Source: a virus
DNA: 62,604 bases
Direction: 5' to 3' (one strand)
IMG/VR virus record: IMGVR_UViG_3300003690_000007
Coordinates: 1 to 62,604 of that record
Shown here: positions 1 to 62,604 of the stretch, one piece after another
Numbering within the stretch: position 1 is the first letter of the stretch
Layout of the letters: every line of letters begins with the position of its first letter
Notes under the pieces: generated by a model
The model's input: the letters and a program-made list of their open reading frames with translations, nothing else
What the model was told of the DNA's origin: nothing
The model's database searches: none
Program-made: the position numbers and the translations under genes

Positions 1-91
1 ACGTCTCGACCTTGGAACAAAAACGCCTGTTCGTTGTCAACAGCGAGACCCACTGCGCTGTCCAGCAGGCGGTGGGGCATCCTGAGCGGGA
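1..91. repeat. 91-bp direct terminal repeat, copy 1 (identical to 62514..62604); circular-assembly overlap or terminal redundancy
   Basis: nt 1-91 (acgtctcgaccttggaacaaaaacgcc...ggggcatcctgagcggga) recur base-for-base as the last 91 nt of the window, in the same orientation. Confidence 0.95.
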
Positions 92-23008: not shown

Positions 23009-24259
23009 TTATCTCACGAGTGATCCAAGTTTTCGTGCCGCCCCGGAGACCTTCTTGACCCCCGACCGGGCTAGCGCCTTGCCAGCACCCACGGCGGCGC
23101 GCCCGGCGTGCTGACCAGCCCTCTGCGCCGCCGCGCCTGCTACGTCAGTTGCAGCTTTCTTGAATCCTGTCGCAGCTTTCTTGACTCCTTCGGAGGCGTA
23201 GTCCTCGGAATGCTCGTGGTCTTCACCGCAGTCGTACTTGCGAGGTCCAAGCTCTAGGTCTTTTCTGACCTCGGCGATTGACTGGGGAACCAAAGCCGTC
23301 GGCACACCCTGAGACGACAGCAGTCTTCCCAGACCCGCATCGCTCGGGTGCTTGTTGGGCAGATGCCGCCTGACCCAATCAGACACGTTGAGAACTCCGA
23401 TCGCCGAACCTTCGGAGATGTCCGCCCCAGCTTCGTATGAGGTTCTGAATCGTCCTTGTCCGGGGCAGGGTGGGCAGGACTTGAGTGCCGAACCAGCAAG
23501 TGCCCCGAGTCCGGCGGCTACCCAAGGGTTGACGCCGTACTTCTTTTTCTTGTTCAGGTCGTCGCTCTTGGGACTGACCGTCATCGCGCCGGGGAAGGTC
23601 GCCGTGTATTTCTCGACCACCTGTCCATCGAATCGTCTGGCGAACCGCGTCATGCCCATGTCAAGCCGGGGTGTTTCAGCACCGAGCGCGGCGATCGGAT
23701 CGAAGAACCGATCTTCCATGCGCTCTTCCAGCCAGACCTCGGGTGACCGCCGCCTGAGCTTTCGCAGGCGATCGGCATCTTCGCGATGCCACCACTCGTC
23801 CGTGAAGATCGCCCAGCGCGGCGTCTTGTTTCCGATCTTCCCTAGACGGTATGGGCCGGAGTACCCGAGAACGTCGGGCATCGCGGCACCAGCAGCCGCT
23901 TGTGCTTTGTCCGGCGTGTGCCCGTCGGTGATGGGTGAGAAGTCTCCGGTATCGTGGATGCGATCGTTGCAGCGTTGCGCGATCGCAGCCAGTGCATTGC
24001 GGTCGTAGACCACCACGTCGCCGTCTCGATCTCTGGTCGTATGCTCGGCAAAGATCGGAACGTCACGGACCCGCATAAACTGGTCGTTCGAGAATCTCTG
24101 GATCGCCTTGCGTTCGATCGGCGTCTCGCCTCGAACAGATCGCCACTGCTGGAAACACTGCGCTTGCTTGTCGTCGGTTTCCATCCCGGTCCCGAGGTCA
24201 GCATGGCACCGTTCGGTGAAACTGACCTCGGTTTCGTTTGGCAACGGGTTTGTCATCAT
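23009..24259 (-). CDS. putative prohead protease / head maturation protein (416 aa)
   Basis: Occupies the position of Mu gpI (between the portal block and the scaffold). There is no clear catalytic motif, and the start codon has no SD. Confidence 0.35.
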   Translation of the reverse strand: MMTNPLPNETEVSFTERCHADLGTGMETDDKQAQCFQQWRSVRGETPIERKAIQRFSNDQFMRVRDVPIFAEHTTRDRDGDVVVYDRNALAAIAQRCNDRIHDTGDFSPITDGHTPDKAQAAAGAAMPDVLGYSGPYRLGKIGNKTPRWAIFTDEWWHREDADRLRKLRRRSPEVWLEERMEDRFFDPIAALGAETPRLDMGMTRFARRFDGQVVEKYTATFPGAMTVSPKSDDLNKKKKYGVNPWVAAGLGALAGSALKSCPPCPGQGRFRTSYEAGADISEGSAIGVLNVSDWVRRHLPNKHPSDAGLGRLLSSQGVPTALVPQSIAEVRKDLELGPRKYDCGEDHEHSEDYASEGVKKAATGFKKAATDVAGAAAQRAGQHAGRAAVGAGKALARSGVKKVSGAARKLGSLVR

Positions 24260-24326: not shown

Positions 24327-24551
24327 CTAGTGTCGAATTGTCTGCTTCAGGTCGGCGTTGATGCCGATGATGAAGTTGTCTCTAAGTAGGATAGTAACTT
24401 CGACATGACCGTGGAAGCCCTTTTTCACGATTGCGTCGTCGAGCAGCGCATCCAGTTGCAGATGCGCCCTCTCTCGCCACCTCCGGTTTCGATCACCCTT
24501 GGTTGACGACGAGGCATTTTTGTTGTCCACCTGTGTTGCTGTCAAGGTCAT
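24327..24551 (-). CDS. hypothetical protein (74 aa)
   Basis: 4-nt overlap with the upstream gene. Confidence 0.55.
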   Translation of the reverse strand: MTLTATQVDNKNASSSTKGDRNRRWRERAHLQLDALLDDAIVKKGFHGHVEVTILLRDNFIIGINADLKQTIRH

Positions 24552-24775
24552 CTGTTGTCGAGGGGGATGATCGGATCGACGCCGAATAGCTCACCGGCTT
24601 TCAGCAGCGCCGCACGCCCCACGCCTCCCTGCCACTCGCGTTCCTCGACCGGGATCACCTTGTTCAATGCCTCGGCGAAATCCGGGTCATCGTCGCAAAC
24701 CCACTCCTGCTCGTCGCCGTCCACGGCGATGCGACCGATGCCGTCGAGGTTGATCCATCCGATTGCTGGCATCAC
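24548..24775 (-). CDS. hypothetical protein (75 aa)
   Basis: 4-nt overlap with the upstream gene. Confidence 0.6.
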   Translation of the reverse strand: MMPAIGWINLDGIGRIAVDGDEQEWVCDDDPDFAEALNKVIPVEEREWQGGVGRAALLKAGELFGVDPIIPLDNR

Positions 24776-26793
24776 AGACCTCGCAACGTGGCGATGACAA
24801 AGCGGAAGTATTCCGGGTCGGACTTGGCGAATCCCGTCGGGTCTTCGAACAGGCGCTCGACACCCATCGAAATCACCTCGGTGGCGGTGATTCCGAATCC
24901 AAACGACCCCATCGTTGCCTTGGGGTCATCGCCGTAGGACGAAGTCTTGTAGAGCTTCCCGGCGTAGGCCGCACGTTGCTGCGAGTCGCCCCGCTGCTTG
25001 CCACCGAAGGCGTCTCGCATCCTGTCGGGGTTGCCGTACTCGTCGAGATCGTACCAGTCGCCGTATCTATACAGCGGCCCATCGTCGTCCTCGTTCATCC
25101 GCGACATGAGGAACCCGAGCGACTTGAGCGCGTAGGTCTTCGTGGCACCGTATTCGATGTGGTGCCCGAACTCATGGGCGACGGTGACGGCGGTGACACC
25201 CGGCGTCAGACGAAGTTCCTGATCGCTGTCCGAGTAGCTCGACCGGTACTTGTGTCTCCCGCTGCTCGGTCCGATGTTGACGTGCCTGACCTTGTACGCC
25301 AGTCTCCCCGAAGGAATCCACCCGGCCACCTTCTCGACGGCCTTGGTGATCATCTGTTTCTTGTCGTCAGAGAAGTGCCCCTTGGAGAACGTCAGTTCGA
25401 CCTGTTGGCTGGTCCCCTCGGGAAGCGTGAGCGCGTCGTGGACCGCGCCGTTACGCTTCTTGCGTAGGTCGTCCCGGTCATCCCTGACCTTCTCCATCAG
25501 ACGCTCCGAGTCGCCAAGCTCTTTCAAGTACCGCTTCCGCTCTTTCGAGAGGTCGTTGGCGGACAGTCCCTTGCGTCGCTTCTGGTGCTCGCTGATGATC
25601 TCCAAGGCGATGTCGTTTGCGTCATTGATCCCCTTGTCGAGCGCCTCGATCTGTTCGTCCCACACGTCGCTGGTGAGCACTTCCTGACGAATCGACTCGG
25701 ACGTTTCGTGGAATCGCTCCTTGGCGGTCTCGTAGTCATGCGAGATCGCCTTCTTGTTTTTGAACAGTTCAGACCGCCAGTTCCGCATCTCACGACCGCT
25801 GATGTGAGCGGCGAGCAGCCGCGACGCCCGGCCTTTGCGGCCCCACTGGAAACAGCGCGCGTGTGACTTGAGTATCTCGCTCGGGATGTCCTTGACCAGT
25901 TCAACGAACCGGCGCTTCTCGTCGGCGCTGCCCTTGTCGTGGGGTTTGAGCTTGCTGCCCAACCGCGCGTAGAACGACCTGACGCTGTTGATATAGACCT
26001 CGTCGGAGCGCGGGCGAAGTTCGCGATCCCAGAGGTCGCTGTGTTCGAGCGCCCTGAGCACCTTGGAGTCTTGTGACGTTTCGGACAGCATCGCCGCCCC
26101 GATCAGCTTTTGCCGACGCTCGACCATCTTCCCAAGTGCCCGCTCTGCACCTCCCGGCGAGTAGTACTTCTCTCCCCACGGAGTCGTGAACTCCACATCC
26201 GCAGCCGCGTGGTACGCGGCGTACGTATCCTTCCACGCTGCCCGGTCTTCTTCGCTCTGCGGGTGTTGGTTGACGTGAAGCTCCTCGTTCAGCCTGACGA
26301 CCTCGTCGGCCTTGGCCTTCGCCGCCTCGTAGGCTGGCTCGATCTGGTCCCAGACCCAGAGCTTCCACTCATCCCGGAAGTCCTCGATCGTTCCTTTGAA
26401 GACCGCGCGGGGTTTCTTCCTGTTCGCCTTGGACTTCTTCTTGGGCTTCTTCTTGGCAGGCTTCTTTGGTGCAGACTTCCTTTCGCTCTTGGGTCGGTGG
26501 TCGTCCCAATCCTCTGGTTGTCCTCCGCTGCCCGAGGTGGTGGAGAACTTGCCGCCCTCGTCACGCGGGCAGTCGTCCAGTGCCGCTTCGGGTCCGCATC
26601 GATGACGGCGATCGTAGAACCCCCTCTGCAACAGTTCGCGGAAGCTGCGGACCTTGCTCGCGCGCGAGAACCGCCGAGAGAACTGGGCCACGGTGTCCTC
26701 GGGTTCCGACGGGTCGAGCATATCGAGCACGTCGGGGTGGACGCCCGGCTGGTGCTCGGACATCTCCACGAACAGGGTCGGCTTGTCACTCAC
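24772..26793 (-). CDS. polyvalent effector protein with C-terminal HExxH zinc metallopeptidase (673 aa)
   Basis: AHEFGHH (nt ~25160-25180) plus a downstream Glu (ATEVISMGVE). Also has a Lys-rich stretch (KKPAKKKPKKKSK) and one linker motif (GFYDRRHRCGPEAALDDCPRDEGGKFSTTSGSGG). Confidence 0.7.
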   Translation of the reverse strand: MSDKPTLFVEMSEHQPGVHPDVLDMLDPSEPEDTVAQFSRRFSRASKVRSFRELLQRGFYDRRHRCGPEAALDDCPRDEGGKFSTTSGSGGQPEDWDDHRPKSERKSAPKKPAKKKPKKKSKANRKKPRAVFKGTIEDFRDEWKLWVWDQIEPAYEAAKAKADEVVRLNEELHVNQHPQSEEDRAAWKDTYAAYHAAADVEFTTPWGEKYYSPGGAERALGKMVERRQKLIGAAMLSETSQDSKVLRALEHSDLWDRELRPRSDEVYINSVRSFYARLGSKLKPHDKGSADEKRRFVELVKDIPSEILKSHARCFQWGRKGRASRLLAAHISGREMRNWRSELFKNKKAISHDYETAKERFHETSESIRQEVLTSDVWDEQIEALDKGINDANDIALEIISEHQKRRKGLSANDLSKERKRYLKELGDSERLMEKVRDDRDDLRKKRNGAVHDALTLPEGTSQQVELTFSKGHFSDDKKQMITKAVEKVAGWIPSGRLAYKVRHVNIGPSSGRHKYRSSYSDSDQELRLTPGVTAVTVAHEFGHHIEYGATKTYALKSLGFLMSRMNEDDDGPLYRYGDWYDLDEYGNPDRMRDAFGGKQRGDSQQRAAYAGKLYKTSSYGDDPKATMGSFGFGITATEVISMGVERLFEDPTGFAKSDPEYFRFVIATLRGL

Positions 26794-29700
26794 TCGTCAC
26801 GCCCTCGGTGTCTTCCCACGGCCCCCAATGCTCCGTCTGCGACATCCATCCCGCCATCTCCGCGTCGTCGTAGGTGTGCTCGACAGACACATCGCAGAAC
26901 TGGTAGTAGCTGGCCTTGTCGTAGAACTGCGTATGTGTTCCATCATAGACAACGTCGCCGATCTCGACCCACGCATGAGCGATTGGGATGTTACCCATCG
27001 TCACCGTACCGTGGACGAGACGCATCTCTCGGAAGTCGTCGTTGCCTGCCGAGAACATATTATCCAGCATCAGCCGCCCGGCTTCCGGGTAGCAGTCGCC
27101 GGGCATCGGGGTGCCCAACGGCCTGTCGATCAGGTTCTTCGCTCCTTCGGGTGCGTCCGCGATCGTGGGATGCGAGAACAGGTGCGGACTGTGCTTCTCG
27201 GCGTAGGCCGTCGCTTCGGCGTGGATCTTCTGACCCTCCTTGGCCGAGACGACTTTCCCGCCGCCCGAGGTCTTCCCCCCGCCAGCCTTGGTCGCGAAGC
27301 GCCCGCCCTTGTCCCGCTTGATCTTCGACTCGTCGAACTTCCTGCCGTAGAATCCTCGGCGGTAGAACTCCTTGTCGAGCTTCTCCGCGTCATCGTCGTC
27401 AAGTCCGAGCGCCTCGCTGCTGTCGTCGGTGCGCTTCGGCCAGTCGGCGTTGTGAACCAACTCGTCGAAGTCCAGTACGAGCACGTCCGGGTCGCGGTCC
27501 TTCGCGTACCACGCCGGGCTGTCGTATCCGGGAGTGCCAACCAACCGGCCACTGGTGAGCAGATCGTCACCCCGACCCTCGAACAGTGCGCCCGTCGGCC
27601 CCTTCCACTTGCTCTTGAGGTGCTCGCGGTACGCCAAGCCAGCAAACTGTTCGGGGTCCACAACGAGATGCTGCTCCTCTGGTCGCAACGCAGGGTCTTC
27701 GCCCACACGATCAATCCAGAAGTGCGTGTCTCCGTCGTGCGGCATCACGACGACTTCGGATTCAGTCAGGCAGCCCACCCCCGTGGTCGGCATACTGAGG
27801 ATCGCCTCGATGGGAACGTGCGACGCTGCCACGACAGAGGCGGTTCCCCGCGCGAAGCTGTTCGGCCCCCCGCTCGCGAAACTGGTGGCCGTCGAGAGGG
27901 TCATCGAGTACGAACTCATCGGCTGGAACAGCGCCTCGGCGTGAAGGTGCTTCGAAGGGACGAACTTGCGCAGGTCGTCTCTTGAAATATCGAAGATACC
28001 CTCCGGCGGCTTGCGGCCATCCTCTACCCAGTTCATCCCTCTGAACAGGGTGATCGTGTCGCCCGGCTTGAAGCCCATTTCCTTGAGTTTGTCCTGCGTG
28101 TTCTCGTACTGAGACCTCACGAAGTTGCGCATATCCTTGGCGATATGCCCTTGGTAGAACTCTCGCGCCTGAGTCCTCGGCTCGTTGCCGTCCTTGATGC
28201 GCTGCCACTCTTGGCTGGTCTTCTCCCATTCGAGATAGGGTTCGTGGTCGGTCGCAGACTTGTAGAGCGCGTCGTAGAAGTGCCGCACGTTCGTGTCGTA
28301 GTCCGCCTCGGGGTCGAAGCCGACGTGATCTCTCACGAAACCGGGGTCGCGATAGTTGCCGCCCGGCTTCTCGCCGCGTGCCTGAACATTGAGATACTCC
28401 ATCTGGCGCAAGTGGCCGGACCACAATTCCTCGGTGACGTTCACCGTCCGAGTTCCGGCGGTCAACTCTCCAGCCTCGTCGCGCCCGTACCACCCCTCTT
28501 GGGCAACCTTGAACGTCACCCCCTGATCATCGCGAGGGTCGTAGTCCGTCAGCGTGTCATCATCGACGGCCTTCCTCATGCGAAGATTGTCATCGACCAA
28601 CTTCGCAAACTCGTCGGCGTTCGCGATCGGTGGCCGTCCGCTCGGTGACCACGGGCCGGACGTGACTGCGCGTTGAACATTACGCGCCGCCATGACGTGC
28701 GTGGGAAAGCTGGTCGACGGCATCTTTCTGTCGTATGCCTGCGGAGACGTTTTCGACAGCACCCGATACAGGTCTTCGAGTTCAGGAATGTCCGGCAACG
28801 GTTCTGGTTCGAAACGAGGGTCCGGGTCCATGCCGAACTCCTCGGCAGCGGCCAACTGCATCGCGATCGCTTCGAGGTGTTCGTCGGCGGAAGTCGTCGC
28901 CCACAGATCCACCCACATCCTGACTGCGCGTTCGGCAGTATGCCGACCACGGGGGTGGGCTGCCTGTGACCGCCCGCCGAGGGATGGGTCACGCTTCACC
29001 ATCCGCTCGGTCAGGGACTTGTTGAGCGCAGCCTTCGATGCGTTTCGCGCCTCTTTGCTGAACAGTGACGGGTGAGGCACATCCCCCTCGTCGGGGCTGT
29101 GGGTGCTCCCATACCAGAACGCCGCCGCGCGCGCGTCGGCCTCGTCTCCTCCCTTTCCTAGCGAGTCCTTGAGTATCTCGATCACCGAGTTCGTGAGGCC
29201 GTCCTGAAACTTCTCAAGGTTTCGCATCGACCCGACGGTGTCGGTCTTCACCTTCCCGGTGCCCGCCTTGGTCGAGAACCGCCCGCCTTCGTCACGCTTG
29301 ATCTTCGATTCGTCGAAGGGCCGCTTGTAGAACCCTCTCCGGCAGAACTCCCTGTCGAGCGGACTACGGTCAGTGAAAACCTGCAACTGCTTGCGATAGA
29401 TGTCTACGATGTCAACAGCATCACCGGACCACGTTCTCCACTCGCCGAGCGCGGACATCTGATGACCCTGAGCACCGTCGACCGGGGACACCTCAACCGT
29501 CTTGATCTGAGACTCGTCGATGTTCGCCAACGCCTCGGGGTCGGACAGGAAGAAGCCGGGGTTCATCGGACCGCCCGCGTACTCGCGGAAGGTGAGGTAG
29601 TTCTTGTACATCTGGAAGCGGTCGTACAGTGCGTCCTCTGGAGGTTGGGCGCGTTCCCACGCAGCAAACTTTCCCGGTGCCGTCTCGTGTGCTCCCTCAA

Positions 29701-30625
29701 TCACACGCCACTCACCCGCACCATCCTTGGGTTTCTCGTCCTTCATCTCCTCGGCAGTCTTCGGCCACCCGTGACGGTACTCGGTGCCATCCATTGCGCG
29801 CTTCATGCCCGGAGGAAATTCGTCTCCCTCTTCCCAGTTCCGATCCCACATCGAGATCAGGTCTTTCAGGAACGGCTTACCGTTGGTGGATCCTCCAGTG
29901 CGAGCATCCTCGACCAGATCCTGTGGAGTGATCTCTCCCCTCGCGAACTTGCGACCCTCCTTGAGCAAGCTGACGATAGCGTCGGCCACCTCCTTGTCCT
30001 CAGTGAAGCTGACCGTGTCGTCGTCTCCTCCACCAAGCCCCAGCCCGGCCTCCTGACCCAACTCGACCCTGCTCTTGAGTCCGGTCTCCCTCACGGCATC
30101 GGAAGCGGTCGTCGCGTGGTACATCTTCTCGGGTAACTCGACCACCCCCTGAATCCCATCCGGAACACCGACGGCGAAGAATCCCATCTTGTCGGCTACC
30201 TTGGCATCAATCGCCCCGGTAGCGATTGCCAGACGTACCTGTTCCTTCCACTCACTCTCCCGGATTCTGTCGTGTCCGAACGCCCGGCGCACGACCTCCT
30301 TGCCGAACTTCTCATACAAGTCGTCGAGTCCGAGATCTGATTCAAACACCTCGGGGTGGGGATTGTCGAGTCGTGCGAACTCCTTCACCGGCATCCTCAG
30401 CGCGGGGAACTCGGACAGCTTGTGTCGCTTGGCCCGCCTCGACTTCTTCTGGTCGGCAGGCGACGACCCGCCCCCAGCAGACTCCGAGAACTTCCCATCG
30501 TCGGCGCGCGGGTGCTCGTCCTCCTTCCAGCGCGCATAAAACTCGCGAGCGAGCAAAGTTCGCACACTGCGAACCCTGCTCGCTCGCTGCACGGCGTGTC
30601 GGATGGTCTGGCTACTTCTTGCCAT
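26786..30625 (-). CDS. polyvalent effector protein: R-S-ExE ADP-ribosyltransferase + C-terminal transglutaminase/papain-like Cys-His-Asp domain (1279 aa)
   Basis: LFRG ... LSTATSF ... TESEVVV (nt ~27740-28060). GDCYPEAG ... IAHAWVEIGDVVYDG (nt ~26940-27100). Three linker motifs lie at nt ~30468-30545, 29255-29335 and 27275-27355. Confidence 0.75.
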   Translation of the reverse strand: MARSSQTIRHAVQRASRVRSVRTLLAREFYARWKEDEHPRADDGKFSESAGGGSSPADQKKSRRAKRHKLSEFPALRMPVKEFARLDNPHPEVFESDLGLDDLYEKFGKEVVRRAFGHDRIRESEWKEQVRLAIATGAIDAKVADKMGFFAVGVPDGIQGVVELPEKMYHATTASDAVRETGLKSRVELGQEAGLGLGGGDDDTVSFTEDKEVADAIVSLLKEGRKFARGEITPQDLVEDARTGGSTNGKPFLKDLISMWDRNWEEGDEFPPGMKRAMDGTEYRHGWPKTAEEMKDEKPKDGAGEWRVIEGAHETAPGKFAAWERAQPPEDALYDRFQMYKNYLTFREYAGGPMNPGFFLSDPEALANIDESQIKTVEVSPVDGAQGHQMSALGEWRTWSGDAVDIVDIYRKQLQVFTDRSPLDREFCRRGFYKRPFDESKIKRDEGGRFSTKAGTGKVKTDTVGSMRNLEKFQDGLTNSVIEILKDSLGKGGDEADARAAAFWYGSTHSPDEGDVPHPSLFSKEARNASKAALNKSLTERMVKRDPSLGGRSQAAHPRGRHTAERAVRMWVDLWATTSADEHLEAIAMQLAAAEEFGMDPDPRFEPEPLPDIPELEDLYRVLSKTSPQAYDRKMPSTSFPTHVMAARNVQRAVTSGPWSPSGRPPIANADEFAKLVDDNLRMRKAVDDDTLTDYDPRDDQGVTFKVAQEGWYGRDEAGELTAGTRTVNVTEELWSGHLRQMEYLNVQARGEKPGGNYRDPGFVRDHVGFDPEADYDTNVRHFYDALYKSATDHEPYLEWEKTSQEWQRIKDGNEPRTQAREFYQGHIAKDMRNFVRSQYENTQDKLKEMGFKPGDTITLFRGMNWVEDGRKPPEGIFDISRDDLRKFVPSKHLHAEALFQPMSSYSMTLSTATSFASGGPNSFARGTASVVAASHVPIEAILSMPTTGVGCLTESEVVVMPHDGDTHFWIDRVGEDPALRPEEQHLVVDPEQFAGLAYREHLKSKWKGPTGALFEGRGDDLLTSGRLVGTPGYDSPAWYAKDRDPDVLVLDFDELVHNADWPKRTDDSSEALGLDDDDAEKLDKEFYRRGFYGRKFDESKIKRDKGGRFATKAGGGKTSGGGKVVSAKEGQKIHAEATAYAEKHSPHLFSHPTIADAPEGAKNLIDRPLGTPMPGDCYPEAGRLMLDNMFSAGNDDFREMRLVHGTVTMGNIPIAHAWVEIGDVVYDGTHTQFYDKASYYQFCDVSVEHTYDDAEMAGWMSQTEHWGPWEDTEGVTSE

Positions 30626-31550
30626 CGTCCTTGAGTTGGATCAGGTACGGGAAGCGCTTGCCCTTGGGTACATCGTCCGACGGAAACTCGACACCGCTGT
30701 CGTCAATCGGCAACCGCCTCAGTTCCTCGTCGCTCGGCATCTTCACCTTGCGGTCCATCGCCCATTCGATCTTCGCCCGTTTGGCCCACGTTCTCATTCT
30801 GCGAACGGGTACGATCAGGTTGAAGCTCTCCCCGGCACCGCGCACGAGCATACCGATCAGACGCCCGTCTGTCTTGTAGACACCGCCGCCACTCGAACCG
30901 GGAAACGCCGGGCACGTCGTTTGATCGAAAACCGTCTTGCCGATCAGTCGACCATGTTGGGACATGATGCCGCTCGTCATCGAGTTCGACCCCAGACGAC
31001 CTCCGAGCAGGCTCCCGACGTGGTACAACCGGGTTCCCAACGGCGGGATCGGTTTGTCGAGGTAGAACTCCACGCTGCTCTTGATGAAGCCGCGCTTGCG
31101 CACGCGCAGGAGCGCGAGATCCTCTCCGTGGTCGGCGTCGGAATAGCGGATGACGGCCGCTGACATCTCAAGAACGCCGACGGTGCGTCCATCTTCGATG
31201 AGCGTCTTCACAACCTTCGCGTCCTTGAACTCGATCACCGTCCGCTTCGATCCAGTCTTCGCGTCAACCACCTGTCTTGTGCTGCGAAGGTCATCAATCA
31301 CATGGGCTGCCGTCCACACGAACGTCTGGTCTCCTCGGACGAACGCCACGCCGGAACCCTCCGACGAGGACGCGCGTATCGTCACCGAGATGTCTTGAAG
31401 GTGTTGGGGAACGCCAGCCTCCGGCGTGCAGTCCTTCTCGGCGTCTGCGGCGGCGATCATGGAGGTCGTCACCGGGTAGCCGCCGGGTGAAATCGGGATC
31501 AGGCCGAGCGTGGCAATCGACAGTGCTGCTAGAACGAGGAACGGTTTCAT
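30612..31550 (-). CDS. trypsin-fold (S1/DegP-like) serine protease with N-terminal signal-peptide-like helix (312 aa)
   Basis: MKPFLVLAALSIATLGL. Catalytic triad: His in WTAAHV, Asp in DLALLRV, Ser in PGSSGGGVY. Confidence 0.8.
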   Translation of the reverse strand: MKPFLVLAALSIATLGLIPISPGGYPVTTSMIAAADAEKDCTPEAGVPQHLQDISVTIRASSSEGSGVAFVRGDQTFVWTAAHVIDDLRSTRQVVDAKTGSKRTVIEFKDAKVVKTLIEDGRTVGVLEMSAAVIRYSDADHGEDLALLRVRKRGFIKSSVEFYLDKPIPPLGTRLYHVGSLLGGRLGSNSMTSGIMSQHGRLIGKTVFDQTTCPAFPGSSGGGVYKTDGRLIGMLVRGAGESFNLIVPVRRMRTWAKRAKIEWAMDRKVKMPSDEELRRLPIDDSGVEFPSDDVPKGKRFPYLIQLKDDGKK

Positions 31551-31576
31551 CGGTCACTCCTTTGACCAGAGGGTTG

Positions 31577-33202
31577 TCAGTCGTCTTGACTGTCTGTCGT
31601 GGTGTATTCGTCATTCTCCATTTCATCCCACATCGCGTCGAGGTCAGCCAGTTCCTCGGGCGACAGGTCCGGCTCCTCGACCAGAGCGGTGGCCTGTTGT
31701 GGGGGCGTGTCCTTGTCTTTCTGGTACTGGTCGGGGAGCTTCCGCGCTGCCACCTTGCGGCGGATGTACTTGTCGAGAATCTTGCTGCTCTGAGAGCCTT
31801 CGCTCGTGTCAAACACGAGATGGACGATTCTGCCGAACTTTGTCCACCACGCACGGCCCTCCTTATGCTTGAGCAGTTCGAGAATGTCGACGCTGCATTC
31901 ATCCTCGAGTCTGAATGCAGCGTCAGGACAGTCGCCTGACAGTCCCAACTTCTCCAGCAGGTCCGGGGAAACTTCGCTACCGTCGACTGTTTCGAGCAGG
32001 TCGAAGATGTCAACGCTGGCCCCGCCGTATCCCATCTTCGGCCAGACATCGTAACCGACCACTGGAGATAGTCCCTCCCCACCCTCCCCAAGTCCCGGTC
32101 CCTGCCCCGCCGCCGATACTTTGATTTCAGCAATTCCTTCTTCGCGACAGAACTGAACCTGCTTACTCAACATTCGCGACCCGATACCTTGTCCCTGATA
32201 TTCAGGTTTCACCCTAAGCGTCTGGTTTGTAACCGTTCGGGTTCCATCTCCCTGAAAGTAAAACATTCGATTCGCATGCACCTTTTCATGTTGGACCGTC
32301 ACATCGGCGACCCAAGTTCCCGTTCTGGTGTCACTGGACAGCAAGACCCACACCTTCGCGTCATCGGGGGCACCGACCAGACTCGCCATACGGGAAATGG
32401 GAATTCCCGTAGCCTTCGTGAACAGCTTCGAATTCACCCCCGGAGTGCGCGACCCCACGGGGATGGGGATCCGACCGAAGCTCCTGTGCCCGTAGCGCAC
32501 GCCTCCGCTGGCGACCTTGGCCTTGGATGGCTGGATGTTCGGGCTGGATACCGGATCCTTGTCCTTCACGCCCGCGTACTGGACTTCATCGAAATCGTGA
32601 GCCGCGTCGAGCAGATCGTGGATGTTGGCCTGAACTTGTAGCAACAGCATCTTCGAGTTCGGGTCGATAAGACGCTGTGCCGCCCACCTGTGGTGTCCGT
32701 CGAGGATGTGCCCGTCCGCGCTCGCGAGGACGCGGCTGTCGGACTTGGACGGATCGAACTTTCCATCGCGCATCGCCTGTGCCATCCCGTGAACCTTGTC
32801 CCAGTTCAGTTCCTCTTGAGTCCCCTTCAGATCTTGGACCGACACCGACGCTTCCTTGATCTCGATACCCTTTGCTTGTAGCTGTTCGACGAACGGCTCG
32901 ATGTTGTCGGCGGTGATCTGTGGCATATCGTGTCTCTTCAGGCCGATGTTATCCTCGAGGATCTGGGCCTCCCGTGACTCCTGATCAGAATCGGGTTCCG
33001 CTTGGCCGGGCGCGGTGGACGTGCCCCCGGCACTGGAGAAGCGACCGGGATGCTTGGCATCACCGCCACGGTTCACCGTGGACTCATCCCACGTCTTCTT
33101 GTATATCTCTCGTCCCTGCTCCTCGCTCGCGAGCGGAACCAACGGGAGATCGGCAATCACGCCGTCTATCTCGACACTCCCCCGGAAGATTTCAGGAATC
33201 AT
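31577..33202 (-). CDS. polyvalent effector protein: ParB/Srx-like nuclease domain + GNAT acetyltransferase (541 aa)
   Basis: LKGTQEEL...ILDGHHRWAAQRL (nt ~32678-32708). RVKPEYQGQGIGSRMLSKQ (nt ~32170-32196). One linker motif, YKKTWDESTVNRGGDAKHPGRFSSAGG. Acidic C-terminus. Confidence 0.75.
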   Translation of the reverse strand: MIPEIFRGSVEIDGVIADLPLVPLASEEQGREIYKKTWDESTVNRGGDAKHPGRFSSAGGTSTAPGQAEPDSDQESREAQILEDNIGLKRHDMPQITADNIEPFVEQLQAKGIEIKEASVSVQDLKGTQEELNWDKVHGMAQAMRDGKFDPSKSDSRVLASADGHILDGHHRWAAQRLIDPNSKMLLLQVQANIHDLLDAAHDFDEVQYAGVKDKDPVSSPNIQPSKAKVASGGVRYGHRSFGRIPIPVGSRTPGVNSKLFTKATGIPISRMASLVGAPDDAKVWVLLSSDTRTGTWVADVTVQHEKVHANRMFYFQGDGTRTVTNQTLRVKPEYQGQGIGSRMLSKQVQFCREEGIAEIKVSAAGQGPGLGEGGEGLSPVVGYDVWPKMGYGGASVDIFDLLETVDGSEVSPDLLEKLGLSGDCPDAAFRLEDECSVDILELLKHKEGRAWWTKFGRIVHLVFDTSEGSQSSKILDKYIRRKVAARKLPDQYQKDKDTPPQQATALVEEPDLSPEELADLDAMWDEMENDEYTTTDSQDD

Positions 33203-36200
33203 ACCAACTCCCTGTCTTTCCAGAATGCGTAGACGTTCGGGTATTCCTCCCGAATCTTATTGCGGTCCTTGCGGGTCAGGATCAGTCGACCGAACTCCGC
33301 GAATCCTTCACGGGCATCTTGGCTCGCGTGGTTTGTGAGTTCGCCATTTGAAAGGTCCACCTTCCACGCCTGTTTCCAGTCCTCCTCGCTGGACAGGTGT
33401 CCGCTGAACCGACCATCGATGGCGTGTGTCATCGCGTGAGCAAAAATGTGTACCATCCGCGCACCCTTCGGAAGCCCGCCTCCCCCGTGGTCCGTGTAAC
33501 CGTGGGGGTCGATCATGTGCAAGCTGGCCGTGTGCGGATCATAGGCCGCGATCGGGTGACCATCCCTCCCCCAGCCTATGCTGCCCATCAGGCCGATCGA
33601 TTCGTCCATCGCCTCCCGGCTCCCGTGGAACAACATCTGCTTGACTGATCGGGACATCCGGCGGCGACCGCGTTGGGACATCTTGTTGGTAAGGTCTGTC
33701 ACCGCTCGACCCATGACCTTCCGGCGAGCGGCAGTGCTGACCCCACCTGATTTGATGGCCGAGTGTTCGAGACCTTGCTTGCGTCTCTCGCCGAGTTCGG
33801 CCCTCACCGTTGCCGCGCCTTTCTCCATGCGCCACAGCCTCTGGGGTACTCCCGGCGCATCGGGGTCTTCAGGAAGCTCTGCCATGATAAGCCATGTATC
33901 ACCGCCGGGCATCTTGATTTTATCATTCGCCTTCTTGCGGCTGCGCGTCGTCGCGGGTGCGTCCTTGCCGGGAGCCGCTGCGCCGCCCTTTGTGGCAAAC
34001 TGTCCCTTGTCGTCGCGCTTGATGTTCGATTCTTCAAACTGCTTCCGGTACTGCGCAGCTTCGGTCGATCCGAAATTGAAGTTGAGCATGAACTTGGAAC
34101 ACGGCTTGCCGCCTTCCTCGCAGAACTCGGTGTAGAAATCGCTGGCGTCCTGCCGGTAGTCGAACCCGGACCCCTTGTGGGCCTGCCCCTTGTTATCGCC
34201 CGTCGTGTAGACAAAGTGGTTCTGCCCAGCATCGGACCAGATCACCGAATCCTGATTGTACTTCTCGCCCATCTCGACCATCTCGCCGCGTGACGCCTCG
34301 GGGATCATCACCAGAATCGCCGCTTCGTCGTGACCCTCGTATCGCCCGTTGCCTTCCGAGAACACGAAGCCGCGAGCTACGAGGTCGTCCTTCAGCTTGT
34401 CGTGGCGGGCTGCCGCCTGCTCGGGCGACATATCCGGCTCGTAGTTCGGGTTCTTGCCCGCGCTGATCAGGCCGACGATGCCGTGCTTCAGCAGGTCGTC
34501 GACTTCCTCAAGCGTGAAGTGGACGTGCTCGCCCTTGCCCGGTTCGCGGCGTGCGATCTTCTCGGCCAGCCCGCCGACCTTCAGCCGCTTCCCCGCCTCG
34601 GCGGCGTGCTGTCGCCACACGTCGGGAACCTGCGGCTTGATCGGCAACTTGTCGGGCGCGGTCGTTGTTGCCGATCCACCGCCTGAGCCGAACTTCCCAT
34701 CAGCAGCACGCGGGTGATCGGCTTCCCGGAACTTCGCGTAGTCCTCGGTCAACTCGTCGTAGGTATCCTGTTCTGCCTCGGTCCACTTGCTGAAGAAATC
34801 CTCGCCGTACTTCTCGTCCATCTCGAACGTGAAGTCGGACACATCGTCATACGTCTTCTTTGGTTCGGGCTTCTTCTCTGCCGACCAGACCTCTACCTCA
34901 TAGCCCCATCCGGGGAGCGGCTCACGATAGCTTTCGCCCACACCTCTCCTCAGATTCACGTCGTCGAAATCCCCCTCAAGACCAATGTAGGCGATTCTGT
35001 TTCCGGGGGTTGATCGCTCGCCAGCCCATTTTCCAGTTTCGAGAATCTCCTTGAACTCCTTGATAGACCCTCGCCACCTCTCAACGGCGGTGTTCTCGTT
35101 TTCCCACGCGACCCTGACCATGACACCCGACGACCGAACCGTTCCCGTCAGGCCCATGTTGCGAGCCTGCTGTTTCAGTTCCCAGATCGCGTCGTCTCTC
35201 AGCTTGCGAACCTGAGCTTTGAGTTCCTTGACCTTTCCGACCTTCCATCCTGTCTTGATGTCCTCGGAAGACCAGAGACCCTCGTCGGTCTCGTCGGCGG
35301 CACTCCCGCCGCCTGCCTTGTCCGAGAACTGGCCGCCCTCGTCGCGATCGTGCTGCGACTCATCGAACTGCTTGGCGTATGTGATGCGAGGGTCTTCTGG
35401 ATCGAAGTCGCCCTTGTTGCCGATCGCCGACTTGATCTGTGTCGGCTCGAACGCGATGAACGTCGTGGCCCGAAGATTGTCGGAGTAGTAGTCGTTGAAC
35501 TTGATCCCGTCGAACCCGGCACTCACAGCCTGCGCTCGCAGAACCTTCACAATCTCGTACTGGTTGAGAATCTGGTAGAGGTCGCGGCCCGCAACCGGGA
35601 AGTCCCGCATCGACACGTCCAGACCGTTGTCTTTCAACAGCGACACCAGCTTCTTGGTGCTGACCCGGCGCGCTGGCAACGAGGTCAGGTCGAGCGGGTT
35701 CTCCATCTTCGCGAAGACAGGCTTGATCTGTGAGCCGACCCCGAGACCTTTCTTGCCCTTGTATCCGAATAGGTAGTCTGGCTCGTTTCTGTCCTCGTGA
35801 ACCTCCCGCATGAGTTCCCGTGCTGACTTGATCGCACCCTTGACCTCGGACTTTATCCCCTTTTGCTTCATGAGACCCTTGGGGTCTTCGATGCTCCAAT
35901 CGAACTTGCCACCGATCTCGTCGGCCAAGTACATGGCGTGCTCAAGGTCCAGCCCGGTTGCGATAGCCATCCCGCTGGGCTTGTGTGTCACGCTGTAGTA
36001 AGTCTCGTCTGGATCGTGGACGGGAAACATCCCGCTCCCTTTCTCAAACGGGGTGTGCGACCCACTAGCCAAGACGAGATCGTGGTGTGGGGTGATGTAT
36101 CCGGACCGGTCCTCCATGCCGTCCTGAGTCCCAATCTGGACCGTGGCCTTCTTGTAGTCGAACAGTTCCACCGTCGGTTTATTGAGTGGCTTTCCAGACA

Positions 36201-39108
36201 CAGCGAACTCGGACGCGAACTTGGGGTCGTCGCTCAGGTAGTGCCAACCGAGACCGGCCAGCCCCTCGTCGTCGCCACGCCAGAACTTACCGAACGTCTC
36301 GAAGCTCTGGTCGGTCCCGTGGTAGAGACGCAGCGGCTCGCCCTGATCGTCAATGACCTTCGAAGCGCCAAACCACTCCGTGAACTTCGGCGTGTCGGTC
36401 TGCTTCCCCTTCGACTTCTGCTCCGACGAGCCGTCTCCTGATTTCTCAGAGAACCGACCGGGGTGCTCGGAGTCACCGCCACGACTCACCTTCGACTCGT
36501 CGAACTTAGCGTGCCGCTTGGCGTACTTGTCGTCGGTTTCGGCCCCCTGAACAAACCCAGAATCATGCACACCCAAGTACCAGTCGGCTTCCGGGAAAAA
36601 CCCGTCGAGCCTTCCGCCGTTGGTGATCTTGACCGTGGACACGCCTCGCTGCAAAAACGCGCCTTTCCGAAACGCCTCTACGTCAATGCCCCGTTCTACC
36701 GACCTCGGGAACTTGTCCCCAAACTCCCACCCGCTGATCGCAGCACCAAACTCCTCGGCTTCTTTCCGGGACTCCTGTTTTGTGATGGGGCCAATCCCGT
36801 CCATGAACTCATCGACCTGACCTTGCCAGTCTCTCGCGGCAACGGACACCCCGTACTTGTTGTATTTCACCGCAGACTGAATCAGGAACTCTTGCCACTC
36901 CAAGTGGCTGTCGAATGTTCGCATCCCGCCGCTTTTGATCAGCACCGGCGTCTTGGTCTTCTTGTCGCCAGCGGGTGTCCTTGCATAAATGTCCGCTTCT
37001 GACGGAACACTGGTGAAGAAGACTCCGAGTGTGTCGAGTATCGGCTTGCCTGTTCGCAAGACCTTGCCGGTTGTAAGTTTTCCGTGTGCATCCGCGTCGT
37101 AGCTCTGGCTTCCGTGCCACACGACCCGTGGGTCACCGTTGTCGTCACGAAGAATGTCGTCTCTCCCCTTTGCCATCTTCAGCAAAGACTCCGAGGCTGA
37201 CTTCTCGCGGGGAGACAACGCTGTCGGGTCGCCGCCCGACTTCTCGGAAAATCGCCCCGGATGGTCGGGGTCACCGCCGCGAGAAACCTTGCTCTCGTCG
37301 AACTTGGCGTGCCGCTCGACGATGTGACGGTCAGCCCGCTGGCGCTCCCCCGTGTCAAAAGGGATGTCCCGCTGCTGCCACTTCCCGTCGGTCGAGACGT
37401 AGGTAACGGTCTGCCCGTCCACACTGGCCTCACCAAAAAGTTCCCGCAGGACAGAGTCGGTGTCCCGGTCGACATCGGGCGGGGGGGGCACGTCGTCCAT
37501 CCGGTCCATCTGTTCGACCCCATCCTGCGGGGTTGGTGGCTGCCCAACTCCACCCGGTCCCATACCGGGAAACATCCCGCCACCGCCGCCGGGTGGCGCG
37601 CCGCCCATCTGGTCCTCTGGCATCTCAAGCACGCGGTCCTCCTCGGTCGGCACCGCCGCACCGATGAGTTCCATCACGTCGCTTTCCTTCAATTTAGCGC
37701 CCATCTGGAACGCCATCTGCCACGCGCTGAGCTTCTCGGACGGGTCTTGCTCCTCCACATCGATCTTGAAGGAGATATGGATTCCCTTGGCCGATGGGAA
37801 GTTCCAGTCCTTGATGTATTTGACGAGTTGGTGGGTGATCGTCTCCTCCAAGTTCGTCGCGTCGTACTTGATGATTTGCAAGAACGTGTCGAGATGTAAC
37901 TCGGCCAGCCCGCTGCCAAGCCCTGTTGCTTGGGCCTCGGACGAGAGGGTCTGGCCGAGTATGTATCGTTTGATCCTGTGACCGTAGTAGTCGTTCAGGA
38001 TGTTCTGGAGCGCGTCGATGCCACCCATTCCCGGTTCGATGATCTCGACTCCGAAGGCGTGCGCGTCGTCGCCCATCGGTTTCGGGACGAGGACGATGTT
38101 CCGCTGGTTGGCGACCCGCTCCTCGGCTGCGATTCGCGCCTTCTTTTCAGCTTCCTCGTTGCCCTGCGGGTAATACCAGATCTCGATTCCACCCGCCGAC
38201 CGCTCGAGGTACTCCATCAGGAACGCGAGGCACTCCTGCTTCTGAAACCAGTCCCAGTAGATTCTCGATCGCAGGCCGACGCCGTGAACCATCCCGGCGT
38301 CGATGAAGTTGTGCCAGTCTCCGTCCTCGATCGTGTGCTTGTGAATCGCCAGCAGAGGACGTTCCCAGTCTTTTAGAAAGTAGGCCAGCCCGCTCTCGGT
38401 CGGCTCCACGTCCCATCGACCCGAGATCTTGTCGTCAGACATGAACCGGGATCCGATCTTGATCCCGACCTGATCGGGCTTGTTGTCGGCGCTTCCGTCG
38501 TCATACCGAAAGACGAGCTTGTCCCCGTTGACCGGAATCCATCCGGGGTTGTCGCGGTAGGCGGCGGGCATCACCCGCATCCTGCCGTTGACATCGCTCC
38601 AGCGGTATCGGTGCTGCACTGCGTAGCGTCCGTACCACACCGCGTGCAGTAGATTGAACCGATACTCGGTGAACCGATGTATCCGGTTCAGGATCTTCGT
38701 CAGTTCCTCGACGAGTGCCACTTGCTCGGTCGAGTTCTCGTCCTCGGGTTCGAGATGCCAGCCAAGCATCGCGGTGCAGCGCTGCCTCGCCTCGACGCAC
38801 TCCATGATCCCGCAGTCGTTCCGCATGAAGCGCGCGTTCTCGCGCGAGTCGCGCAGGGCTTCGTCATTTGCCTGATAGACCTTCGAGAATGAACCGGAGA
38901 TCCCGGCGAACGACAGGACGTGCGGGATGGGGAACTTGCCGAAGTTCGGCGCGGAGCCGGGAATTCCCGTGGCCGGGTCTGTCGCTGCCTCGTTCCGCTC
39001 TTGGACAATCTTCTCGATAAAGCTCGCGGGCCTGCGATCCTCCCCGTTGCCGTTGCCGTTGCCGCTGGCTGCTTGCAACGCATCGGTCAAATCGCGAACC
39101 TTCGCCAT
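33199..39108 (-). CDS. portal protein (Mu gp29/DUF935-like, about the first 500 aa) fused to ~1,450 aa of polyvalent effector domains (1969 aa)
   Basis: Portal hallmark GQTLSSEAQATGLGSGLAELHLDTFLQIIKYDATNLEE, then a Gly/Pro linker (GGAPPGGGGGMFPGMGPGGVGQPP). Two ART-like modules follow (VVWHGS...FFTS; WFGASKVIDDQGEPLRLYHGT...QIKSAIGNKGDFD). Then a DUF3293-like LISAGKNP module and a degenerate metallopeptidase end (FAHAMTHAIDG...EGFAEFG). Five linker motifs. Confidence 0.75.
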   Translation of the reverse strand: MAKVRDLTDALQAASGNGNGNGEDRRPASFIEKIVQERNEAATDPATGIPGSAPNFGKFPIPHVLSFAGISGSFSKVYQANDEALRDSRENARFMRNDCGIMECVEARQRCTAMLGWHLEPEDENSTEQVALVEELTKILNRIHRFTEYRFNLLHAVWYGRYAVQHRYRWSDVNGRMRVMPAAYRDNPGWIPVNGDKLVFRYDDGSADNKPDQVGIKIGSRFMSDDKISGRWDVEPTESGLAYFLKDWERPLLAIHKHTIEDGDWHNFIDAGMVHGVGLRSRIYWDWFQKQECLAFLMEYLERSAGGIEIWYYPQGNEEAEKKARIAAEERVANQRNIVLVPKPMGDDAHAFGVEIIEPGMGGIDALQNILNDYYGHRIKRYILGQTLSSEAQATGLGSGLAELHLDTFLQIIKYDATNLEETITHQLVKYIKDWNFPSAKGIHISFKIDVEEQDPSEKLSAWQMAFQMGAKLKESDVMELIGAAVPTEEDRVLEMPEDQMGGAPPGGGGGMFPGMGPGGVGQPPTPQDGVEQMDRMDDVPPPPDVDRDTDSVLRELFGEASVDGQTVTYVSTDGKWQQRDIPFDTGERQRADRHIVERHAKFDESKVSRGGDPDHPGRFSEKSGGDPTALSPREKSASESLLKMAKGRDDILRDDNGDPRVVWHGSQSYDADAHGKLTTGKVLRTGKPILDTLGVFFTSVPSEADIYARTPAGDKKTKTPVLIKSGGMRTFDSHLEWQEFLIQSAVKYNKYGVSVAARDWQGQVDEFMDGIGPITKQESRKEAEEFGAAISGWEFGDKFPRSVERGIDVEAFRKGAFLQRGVSTVKITNGGRLDGFFPEADWYLGVHDSGFVQGAETDDKYAKRHAKFDESKVSRGGDSEHPGRFSEKSGDGSSEQKSKGKQTDTPKFTEWFGASKVIDDQGEPLRLYHGTDQSFETFGKFWRGDDEGLAGLGWHYLSDDPKFASEFAVSGKPLNKPTVELFDYKKATVQIGTQDGMEDRSGYITPHHDLVLASGSHTPFEKGSGMFPVHDPDETYYSVTHKPSGMAIATGLDLEHAMYLADEIGGKFDWSIEDPKGLMKQKGIKSEVKGAIKSARELMREVHEDRNEPDYLFGYKGKKGLGVGSQIKPVFAKMENPLDLTSLPARRVSTKKLVSLLKDNGLDVSMRDFPVAGRDLYQILNQYEIVKVLRAQAVSAGFDGIKFNDYYSDNLRATTFIAFEPTQIKSAIGNKGDFDPEDPRITYAKQFDESQHDRDEGGQFSDKAGGGSAADETDEGLWSSEDIKTGWKVGKVKELKAQVRKLRDDAIWELKQQARNMGLTGTVRSSGVMVRVAWENENTAVERWRGSIKEFKEILETGKWAGERSTPGNRIAYIGLEGDFDDVNLRRGVGESYREPLPGWGYEVEVWSAEKKPEPKKTYDDVSDFTFEMDEKYGEDFFSKWTEAEQDTYDELTEDYAKFREADHPRAADGKFGSGGGSATTTAPDKLPIKPQVPDVWRQHAAEAGKRLKVGGLAEKIARREPGKGEHVHFTLEEVDDLLKHGIVGLISAGKNPNYEPDMSPEQAAARHDKLKDDLVARGFVFSEGNGRYEGHDEAAILVMIPEASRGEMVEMGEKYNQDSVIWSDAGQNHFVYTTGDNKGQAHKGSGFDYRQDASDFYTEFCEEGGKPCSKFMLNFNFGSTEAAQYRKQFEESNIKRDDKGQFATKGGAAAPGKDAPATTRSRKKANDKIKMPGGDTWLIMAELPEDPDAPGVPQRLWRMEKGAATVRAELGERRKQGLEHSAIKSGGVSTAARRKVMGRAVTDLTNKMSQRGRRRMSRSVKQMLFHGSREAMDESIGLMGSIGWGRDGHPIAAYDPHTASLHMIDPHGYTDHGGGGLPKGARMVHIFAHAMTHAIDGRFSGHLSSEEDWKQAWKVDLSNGELTNHASQDAREGFAEFGRLILTRKDRNKIREEYPNVYAFWKDRELV

Positions 39109-62455: not shown

Positions 62456-62604
62456 ATGACCGACCTGACCACGACCCAGCAGACCACACCGGACTTCGTA
62501 CACCCACTGACCAACGTCTCGACCTTGGAACAAAAACGCCTGTTCGTTGTCAACAGCGAGACCCACTGCGCTGTCCAGCAGGCGGTGGGGCATCCTGAGC
62601 GGGA
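62456..62604 (+). CDS. 5' part of the junction-spanning hypothetical gene (continues at 1..239)
   Basis: ATG 62456 sits directly after the repeat leader. The frame is open to the window end and in phase with 12..239. Confidence 0.6.
   Translation, partial: MTDLTTTQQTTPDFVHPLTNVSTLEQKRLFVVNSETHCAVQQAVGHPER
62514..62604. repeat. 91-bp direct terminal repeat, copy 2
   Basis: Identical to nt 1-91. Confidence 0.95.

Follow-up and report, generated by a model that had tools for sequence, protein, structure and literature searches.

In phage T4, a short N-terminal peptide (the capsid-targeting sequence of Mullaney and Black) directs cargo to the prohead core and is then cut by the prohead protease, and the T4 protein Alt is a packaged and injected ADP-ribosyltransferase (ART). 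To our knowledge, a rule for choosing and freeing cargo inside a capsid is understood mechanistically only for such T4-type internal proteins. Elsewhere, effector domains fused to portal or MuF proteins have been predicted to be packaged in the head and injected (Iyer et al., 2017, PMC5512222; Iyer et al., 2022, PMC9503650); the 2017 study notes both these fusions and extensive domain shuffling, and describes DdrB of phage P1 as a proteolytically processed protein with a ParB-like domain and a C-terminal zincin. Here we analyze a locus in the IMG/VR virus record IMGVR_UViG_3300003690_000007, a metagenome-derived contig of 62,604 nucleotides (the whole of which we call the window), in which five consecutive open reading frames (ORFs A to E) include a Mu-type portal fused to a long tail of effector-like modules. 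A conserved linker of ~35 residues stands in front of each of ten cargo units in ORFs A, B, D and E, and from their domain content and position we consider it reasonably probable that the block is a capsid-cargo locus, whose polyvalent effectors would be packed into the head and released into the host at infection.

The evidence begins with the linker, which we modeled with a profile trained on 115 copies in the proteins of other genomes only and ran on the six-frame translation of the whole window. This external profile recovered exactly ten sites (E-values from 2e-13 to 3e-6; next match, E 0.077), all in A (five), B (one), D (three) and E (one; Table 1), and the “shared linker” that an earlier note on this DNA had picked out from the letters alone recurs far beyond chance. 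Its consensus, RYAK-x-(W/F)DESKHPRD-x-GG(K/R)F-x-K-GGGG, includes a Gly-rich tail. Each of the ten units (A2 to A6, the B unit, D1 to D3 and the E body) has one linker in front, and there are no trailing copies. Where the carrier is a stand-alone protein (B, D and E) the linker lies within residues 27-97, and the same N-terminal placement is seen in 11 stand-alone proteins from five genomes—three each in the window and in two relatives (L001 and L002, where the bearers are the B homologue, the D homologue and a 239-aa protein), and one in each of two Planctomycetaceae loci from metagenome-assembled genomes (MAGs). Of the 120 top-ranked portal homologues, 95 contain one linker or more, and in that set every one of the 138 linkers follows the portal domain, with a median distance of 112 residues from it to the first. 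Pfam holds no model that covers the motif and our literature searches returned no relevant description of it; the word “linker” is absent from both Iyer et al. (2017; PMC5512222) and Jamet et al. (2017; PMC5576092).

What the linker does is best approached through its conservation. Its core, W/F-D-E-x-x-H-P-R-D-x-x-G-x-F, is strict across proteins that are otherwise 25-55% identical, and this constraint, together with the retention of the motif near the N-terminus of separate proteins, argues for a role of the linker in recognition and against one as a spacer. We infer that it may act as a packaging or processing tag. A stronger version, which we offer only tentatively, is that it could be a portable “cargo tag,” combining capsid targeting with protease recognition for any downstream module, whether fused to the portal or encoded as a separate gene. 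The competing view that it is a mere flexible spacer, or a recombination junction for swapping cassettes between phages like the pre-toxin motifs of polymorphic toxins, draws on the facts that module gain, loss and transfer map to linkers, that a Gly-rich tail follows the motif, and that linker DNA copies within the window are 75-84% identical over 50-109 nt. That identity is nonetheless modest and the matching stretches short, a passive spacer is not expected to hold so strict a core at such divergence, and it is not expected near the N-terminus of the 11 stand-alone proteins, where there is nothing to space. On balance we judge a purely passive role unlikely, although spacer or junction and signal are roles that are compatible with each other.

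Comparison with relatives displays how these units travel. The breakpoints of module insertion, loss and transfer between genes, and of splitting from or fusion to the portal, lie either at a linker or immediately upstream of one. Relative to the closest relatives of A (P0002-P0004), the pair A2 and A3 is an insertion that lies precisely between linkers 1 and 3; the ART-PolyVal cassette of L001 is instead part of its D homologue; seven other proteins have the whole B unit joined on behind their portal; and the leader and linker that open the relatives' 239-aa gene are fused in frame inside the D of the window, with a different module (D3) behind them. Because gene fission and fusion fall just upstream of the linker, the tag always stays with its downstream module, and modules move as linker-delimited cassettes.

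Outside the block, a look-alike of the linker core, RDGGRFASGRKG, occurs at 60626-60661 within a 658-aa protein (59822-61798, plus strand); at an external-profile E of 1.0 we attribute it to chance and did not accept it. The 658-aa protein itself weakly matches a ParB-like partition protein (PHROG 8071, E 3e-4).

Table 1. Features of the ORF A to E block in window coordinates; E-values for linkers are from the external profile.
Feature	Residues or length	Window positions	Strand	Description or evidence
ORF A	1969 aa	33199-39108	-	Portal fused to five tagged cargo modules
Mu-type portal domain	A 95-483	37660-38826	-	Pfam Portal_Mu 7.3e-41; PHROG 113 portal 4.6e-34
Linker copy 1	A 595-632	37213-37326	-	E 7.5e-9
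Module A2	A 633-860	36529-37212	-	Possible divergent or partial ART (VVWHGS, FFTS)
Linker copy 2	A 861-901	36406-36528	-	E 3.2e-6
Module A3	A 902-1238	35395-36405	-	ART-PolyVal, split by an insert
Linker copy 3	A 1239-1276	35281-35394	-	E 2.2e-13
Module A4	A 1277-1451	34756-35280	-	No family match
Linker copy 4	A 1452-1488	34645-34755	-	E 3.7e-12
Module A5	A 1489-1681	34066-34644	-	Borderline S-AdoMet-lyase / DUF3293 family
Linker copy 5	A 1682-1719	33952-34065	-	E 1.3e-8
Module A6	A 1720-1969	33202-33951	-	Lethal-factor/MtfA-type zincin, HAMTH; C-terminal cap
ORF B	541 aa	31577-33202	-	Linker, ParB/Srx-like domain, GNAT, acidic tail
B linker	B 29-66	33005-33118	-	N-terminal
B ParB/Srx-like domain	B 76-217	32552-32977	-	
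B GNAT	B 297-365	32108-32314	-	Acetyltransf_1
ORF C	312 aa	30612-31550	-	Trypsin-fold serine protease, linker-free
ORF D	1279 aa	26786-30625	-	Three tagged units
D linker, first	D 27-60	30446-30547	-	E 6.5e-12
Module D1	D ~96-420	29366-30340	-	Conserved mobile module: LYHVTT...GLGGG...SFT...GGPMDPLFF...SALGEWRT
D linker, second	D 429-463	29237-29341	-	E 9.4e-9
Module D2	D 464-1088	27716-29236	-	Helical “WATTSADE” region 464-615, then candidate R-S-ExE ART ~830-970
D linker, third	D 1089-1121	27263-27361	-	E 1.2e-8
Module D3	D 1122-1279	26789-27262	-	Candidate Cys-His papain/transglutaminase-like domain
ORF E	673 aa	24772-26793	-	Leader and linker, C-terminal HExxH domain
E linker	E 62-97	26503-26610	-	E 3.1e-7
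E HExxH domain	E 520-673	24775-25236	-	C-terminal; helical region before it

The genomic setting places these units among head genes. The contig ends share an exact 91-bp overlap (window 1-91 and 62514-62604), from which we take the window to be the circularly closed, complete genome of an uncultured phage, of 62,513 bp; no tRNA genes were found in it. The five ORFs were all located on the minus strand, in the order, positions and sizes first reported, with every peptide motif quoted from them present in the translations, and they make up 22.9% of the closed genome (the earlier note's “close to a quarter”). They are tightly spaced, as in an operon: A and B overlap by 4 nt, B and C are 26 nt apart, and C/D and D/E overlap by 14 and 8 nt. 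Reading along the minus strand, the block is preceded by the terminase large subunit (41287-42864), a KTSC-domain protein and two small proteins, and followed by two proteins without a family match (p416 and p412, of 416 and 412 aa) and then the major head protein (20218-21264). Its placement inside the head module, between terminase and major capsid gene, therefore stands. The nearest relatives, whose portals are 75-77% identical to that of A, keep the order terminase, KTSC gene, two small genes, portal fusion, B homologue, D homologue, 239-aa gene, p416 homologue, p412 homologue and capsid gene. As side observations, the KTSC-domain protein (373 aa, 40163-41284, minus strand) retains its position between terminase and portal in L001 and L003, and a 74-aa ORF between E and p416 (24327-24551, minus strand) has a 73-aa counterpart at the equivalent position in L002.

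ORF A is a genuine Mu-type portal. It is identical to a protein called by the Joint Genome Institute (JGI; P0001) and has 309 homologues. Its Portal_Mu (DUF935) domain scores 141 bits against a cut-off of 23.9 and covers profile positions 7-335 of 336. Across GenBank phages (50,697 records, searched by megablast and tblastn) there is no close relative, and the best portals, those of the Mu-like phages B3, JBD67 and phiSHP3, are 24-26% identical to it. A Gly/Pro-rich spacer (A ~500-560) follows the portal domain and leads into a multi-module C-terminal tail of ~1,400 residues. This design is widespread: more than 300 metagenomic proteins of 1,085-3,251 aa share the portal-plus-tail layout, all 120 of the top portal homologues have at least 595 residues after the portal domain, and the tails of homologous fusions carry LPD1, LPD3, PF18823, ART-PolyVal, 2H, Nudix, ADPrib_exo_Tox and zeta toxin domains. 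Two relatives are contigs from Planctomycetaceae MAGs (L006, CAZDGB010000099.1; L007, JADZEF010000396.1), with portal fusions of 1043 and 1325 aa whose portals are 55-56% identical and whose next gene product opens with a linker (residues 7-30 and 33-55); these relatives suggest Planctomycetes as the host phylum of the clade.

Confidence in the individual modules of the A tail varies. Two ART-like modules had been proposed, and one holds: A3 matches ART-PolyVal (PF18760) at 2.7e-20 and 74-85 bits (cut-off 31.2) in two stretches reaching position 140 of 140. A2, on the other hand, matches only positions 1-50 of the same profile, at a sub-threshold 20.6 bits (E 8e-4); it aligns to A3 by BLAST over the HG(S/T) strand alone (E 0.038) and is absent from close relatives. 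Homologues of A4 occur only in P0002-P0004, at 37-39% identity. The module previously described as DUF3293-like, A5, is borderline, in that it reaches 28.6 bits against PF23780 (cut-off 28) as an isolated segment but 24.2 within the whole protein, and falls short for DUF3293 itself (22.1 bits, cut-off 25); its profile retrieved no match from the PDB, solved S-adenosylmethionine (SAM) lyases included. Searching PDB sequences with A, B, D and E as single queries yielded nothing useful.

At the C-terminus of A, the degenerate HExxH motif noticed earlier (FAHAMTH) belongs to a genuine lethal-factor/MtfA-type zincin. The A6 family profile retrieves lethal factor (2l0r, 2.2e-5), MtfA (9srw, 4.4e-4) and, at ~0.03, Zmp1 from the PDB, and the Pfam ATLF match (E 9e-4) is below cut-off. 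Similarity to these gluzincins extends over the catalytic domain, taking in HExxH and the downstream E-x-x-A-E helix. Unlike them, A6 reads HAMTH, so that the catalytic Glu is replaced, and its counterparts in P0002-P0004 have lost both His residues; homologues at the C-terminus of other portal fusions keep HEMTH, HELGH or HEFGH. By these residues the A6 domain is probably catalytically dead.

ORF B was read earlier as a ParB/Srx domain fused to a GNAT, and here the second half is secure and the first remains at motif level. The GNAT scores 26.7 bits for Acetyltransf_1 (cut-off 20.7) and 27.0 for Acetyltransf_7 (cut-off 27) and contains the acetyl-CoA motif QGQGIG. The I-L-D-G-H-H-R motif of the ParB/Srx-like region is invariant across 11 homologues and its profile reaches the free serine kinase SerK (5x0j, E 0.034) and 1vk1 (E 0.13) in the PDB over the motif region; ParBc_2 matches two of the 11 homologues (E 0.0054), but B itself has no ParB match in Pfam.

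ORF D carries three tagged units. The JGI start yields a protein of 1259 aa, 20 residues shorter (start region 30565-30625, minus strand); residues 12-52 of D align with the N-terminus of a homologue (P0132), with which they are 61% identical, and this makes the ATG at 30625 the better start. Module D1 has ten homologues, in which it is partnered with MuF, S78 prohead protease, ParBc and SAM-lyase-like domains (the MuF domain being found in distant carriers such as P0128), and its invariant residues are His, Arg, Glu and Asp. An AlphaFold model of D1 is confident (predicted local distance difference test score, pLDDT, 78; predicted template modeling score, pTM, 0.72), Foldseek found no fold match for it in the PDB (best E 0.74), and BFVD yielded a single match, to a “phage head morphogenesis domain” protein (E 2e-4). 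The model suggests that D1 may be an uncharacterized fold or enzyme family. Its LYHVTT, SFT and GEWRT motifs had raised the suspicion of a further ART, which a good model with no PDB match does not support.

In D2, the R-S-ExE ART proposed earlier retains its motifs but gains no confirmation of fold. The candidate motifs are LFRG, PMSSYS and ESE, and the L-x-R-G, S-S and E-x-E triad is invariant and in order in seven homologues. Aligned by hhalign to a bona fide PF03496 domain, the R and STS motifs are in register (E 0.043, probability 1%); one of the seven homologues matches DRAT (E 0.008), D itself has no Pfam match for this region, and there is no PDB profile match. The D3 end, taken earlier for a Cys-His-Asp transglutaminase/papain-like domain, shares its Cys and His with a single homologue (P0122), but beyond this has only a weak Transglut_core3 match (E 0.031) and no PDB profile match. 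The AlphaFold model of D 800-1279, spanning the candidate ART and Cys-His domains, was unusable (pLDDT 38.6), and a word-indexed homologue search with D2, D3 and E concatenated returned two relatives only.

The peptidase described as intact in ORF E (AHEFGHH) is likewise conserved in motif and has no family or PDB assignment. Its C-terminal domain has 956 relatives in an exhaustive library, with H-E-x-x-H-x-x-E (H, E, H and E) invariant in the 20 aligned. Homologues give single weak zincin matches (Zincin_1 at 0.0027, M13, ATLF and MPTase-PolyVal), hhalign to the A6 family covers the HExxH helix alone (probability 65%), and the domain profile found no match in the PDB. E is absent from L001-L003. 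Directly behind its linker is a Lys-rich stretch, PKKPAKKKPKKKSKANRKKP (E 98-130; 26404-26502, minus strand), which may be DNA-binding or disordered.

Taken together, the portal fusion, the position in the head module, the MuF and prohead-protease domains that partner these modules elsewhere, and the published effector fusions to portal and MuF favor the interpretation that the products of the block are cargo of the head interior. Portal structures place the portal C-terminus on the inside of the capsid. About 12 copies of A, one per portal subunit, would then each tether ~157 kDa of enzymes (the mass of the A tail) inside the procapsid, and B, D and E would be recruited through their N-terminal leader and linker. 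On the simplest model, by analogy with the T4 capsid-targeting sequence, the head-assembly or maturation machinery would recognize the linker as a combined targeting and cleavage signal, and cargo units would be freed inside the head and exit together with the DNA. Early in infection the freed enzymes—ART-like domains, a GNAT, a ParB-like NTPase/DNase, a possible SAM lyase and a zincin peptidase—would then target host proteins, nucleic acids or cofactors. During head maturation, the Mu portal gpH is reportedly processed at its C-terminus by gpI.

Several points weigh against this scheme. Packaging, cleavage and injection are deduced from domain content and architecture, and several enzymatic assignments are at the level of motifs: profile searches recovered Portal_Mu, the A3 ART-PolyVal, the GNAT, the trypsin fold of C and the A6 zincin, and the remaining folds claimed for the block are motif-level or borderline. 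The linker is not universal, being missing from the 2999-aa fusion of L004 and from most D1-containing proteins. If left uncleaved, twelve tails of 157 kDa would have to be tolerated by the portal dodecamer. Autoprocessing by A6 cannot be general, as this domain is degenerate here and lacks both His residues in the closest relatives; ORF E, whose HExxH is intact, is missing from those relatives too. Finally, our searches brought to light no head maturation protease, with neither p416 nor p412 matching Pfam, PHROG or NCBIfam even at E 10.

The two genes between the block and the capsid gene have features of their own. Directly after the cargo genes, p416 (23009-24259, minus strand) is 66% identical in relatives and, by position, is a candidate head maturation protease or scaffold; its N-terminus may resemble P2 gpO-type proteases. 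The product of p412 (21765-23003, minus strand) is very acidic and coiled-coil-like, and by these features looks like a scaffold protein. Two RYAK boxes in it (residues 310 and 377) resemble the one at the start of the linker and are semi-conserved in its L002 counterpart (as RYGK and QYAR); they are a weak hint of a protease site in common with the linker.

Closer at hand is ORF C, which the earlier note took for the block's own protease; in that role it would cut the polyproteins at their linkers. C is a bona fide trypsin-fold enzyme (Trypsin_2, 4.1e-15, above the Pfam threshold, residues 53-242) with an intact His83, Asp144 and Ser220 triad; it is located mid-block, and the linkers are rich in Lys and Arg. 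Yet its N-terminus (residues 1-37) is signal-peptide-like and includes a strongly hydrophobic segment of a kind that no other N-terminus in the block has (Kyte-Doolittle 19-residue maximum of 2.05 at residues 4-22), as is typical of an exported or membrane-anchored protein. Its nearest family matches, all weak, are periplasmic DegP/HtrA types, and it belongs to the trypsin/HtrA family and not to the S78, U35 or S80 prohead protease families. The external profile finds no linker in C, and tblastn finds no C in L001-L003, which keep the same linkers and cargo genes. Hydrophobic N-terminus, HtrA resemblance, lack of a tag and absence from linker-bearing relatives make a dedicated processing role improbable, and the best reading of C is an unrelated gene, for an exported protease, that has been inserted in the block.

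The effectors might instead be phage-borne polymorphic toxins of the MuF type, aimed mainly at competing bacteria or phages, or benefiting a lysogen, in place of disarming the infected host. Modules typical of toxins include ART-type and peptidase domains, a D2b-like ART stands behind a MuF-like region in P0133, and MuF toxins adjoin portal genes in temperate phages (PMC5576092). However, the MuF (Phage_Mu_F) profile has no match in A to E even at E 5; there are no immunity-like small genes between modules, in the ORFs scanned we noticed neither an integrase nor a lysogeny module, and with ten different modules per genome the polyvalent pattern is a better fit than that of a lone C-terminal toxin. 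We accordingly give this toxin explanation little credence.

That the giant ORFs are assembly or annotation artefacts (chimeric contigs or fused frames) can be set aside almost entirely: the contig is from a metagenome and the JGI start of D differs, but three independent assemblies from other samples (L001-L003) have the genes in collinear order and at comparable sizes (1424-1428 aa for the portal fusions, 1391-1522 aa for the giant D homologues), the two contig ends join exactly, GC content (0.59-0.63) and strand bias are even over the whole block, and similar fusions exist in the hundreds.

If the capsid-cargo interpretation is correct, the DNA of this phage would be injected along with ten distinct enzyme units, of which five would be present at portal stoichiometry, and its clade would be a rich and mostly uncharacterized source of early anti-defense effectors (ART-like, GNAT, ParB-like, zincins and D1). 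If the linker is indeed a cargo tag, it and the portal anchor together would amount to plug-and-play protein delivery in a large clade without a close GenBank relative, in a system that includes the widespread, enzyme-like D1, with its confidently modeled fold and no solved-structure match. The tag suggests a rule for choosing and freeing cargo inside the capsid, and it could serve to load foreign proteins into phage heads.

How, then, does this locus compare with described systems? For the linker's possible mode of action, the closest analogy is with T4 internal proteins and Alt. The T4 signal differs in being ~10-19 residues long, unrelated in sequence and present once per protein, whereas the linker has ~35 residues, is internally repeated and is putatively cleaved. 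The pre-toxin motifs of polymorphic toxins (CdiA VENN, Rhs DPxGL; Zhang et al., 2012, PMC3482391) are similarly short motifs at a cassette-exchange junction, which in Rhs is also cleaved; sequence, delivery route and organismal context all differ, and here there are several junctions per protein instead of one. The large anti-restriction proteins of the P1 Dar system (the DarA operon, DarB and DdrB) are packaged in the head, as we propose here, but are not portal fusions; the zincin of A is probably inactive, and the likeness noted here is one of architecture. Fusions of toxins to MuF/SPP1 gp7 (Jamet et al., 2017, PMC5576092; e.g., the EFV ART toxin) lie immediately downstream of the portal gene and join a head-internal anchor to a C-terminal enzyme, often an ART (as in the D2b-type ART of P0133); our locus differs in its many modules, in the lack of a detected MuF domain and in its portal anchor, at ~12 copies by analogy versus one or two for gp7.

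The nearest match is with the polyvalent proteins of phages and conjugative elements (Iyer, Burroughs, Anand, de Souza, and Aravind, 2017, PMC5512222), to which the earlier note had rightly assigned these mosaics: A joins a portal to ART-PolyVal, SAM-lyase-like and zincin-like modules, B joins ParB-like and GNAT domains, and D has three modules. As in those proteins, many unrelated effector domains share a polypeptide encoded among late or virion genes, and the vocabulary (ART-PolyVal, GNAT, ParB-like, zincin peptidase and LPD-like modules) is the same, down to the signature family PF18760. Nor does the architecture stand apart from every described system, as had been thought; portal and MuF effector fusions are already published (PMC5512222; PMC9503650), and more than 300 proteins share the design. 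What is apparently undescribed is the conserved tag and the rule of one tag per unit. In this locus, and unlike the published polyvalent proteins, four genes carry ten units, the portal itself is the anchor, and the conserved tag stands before every unit.

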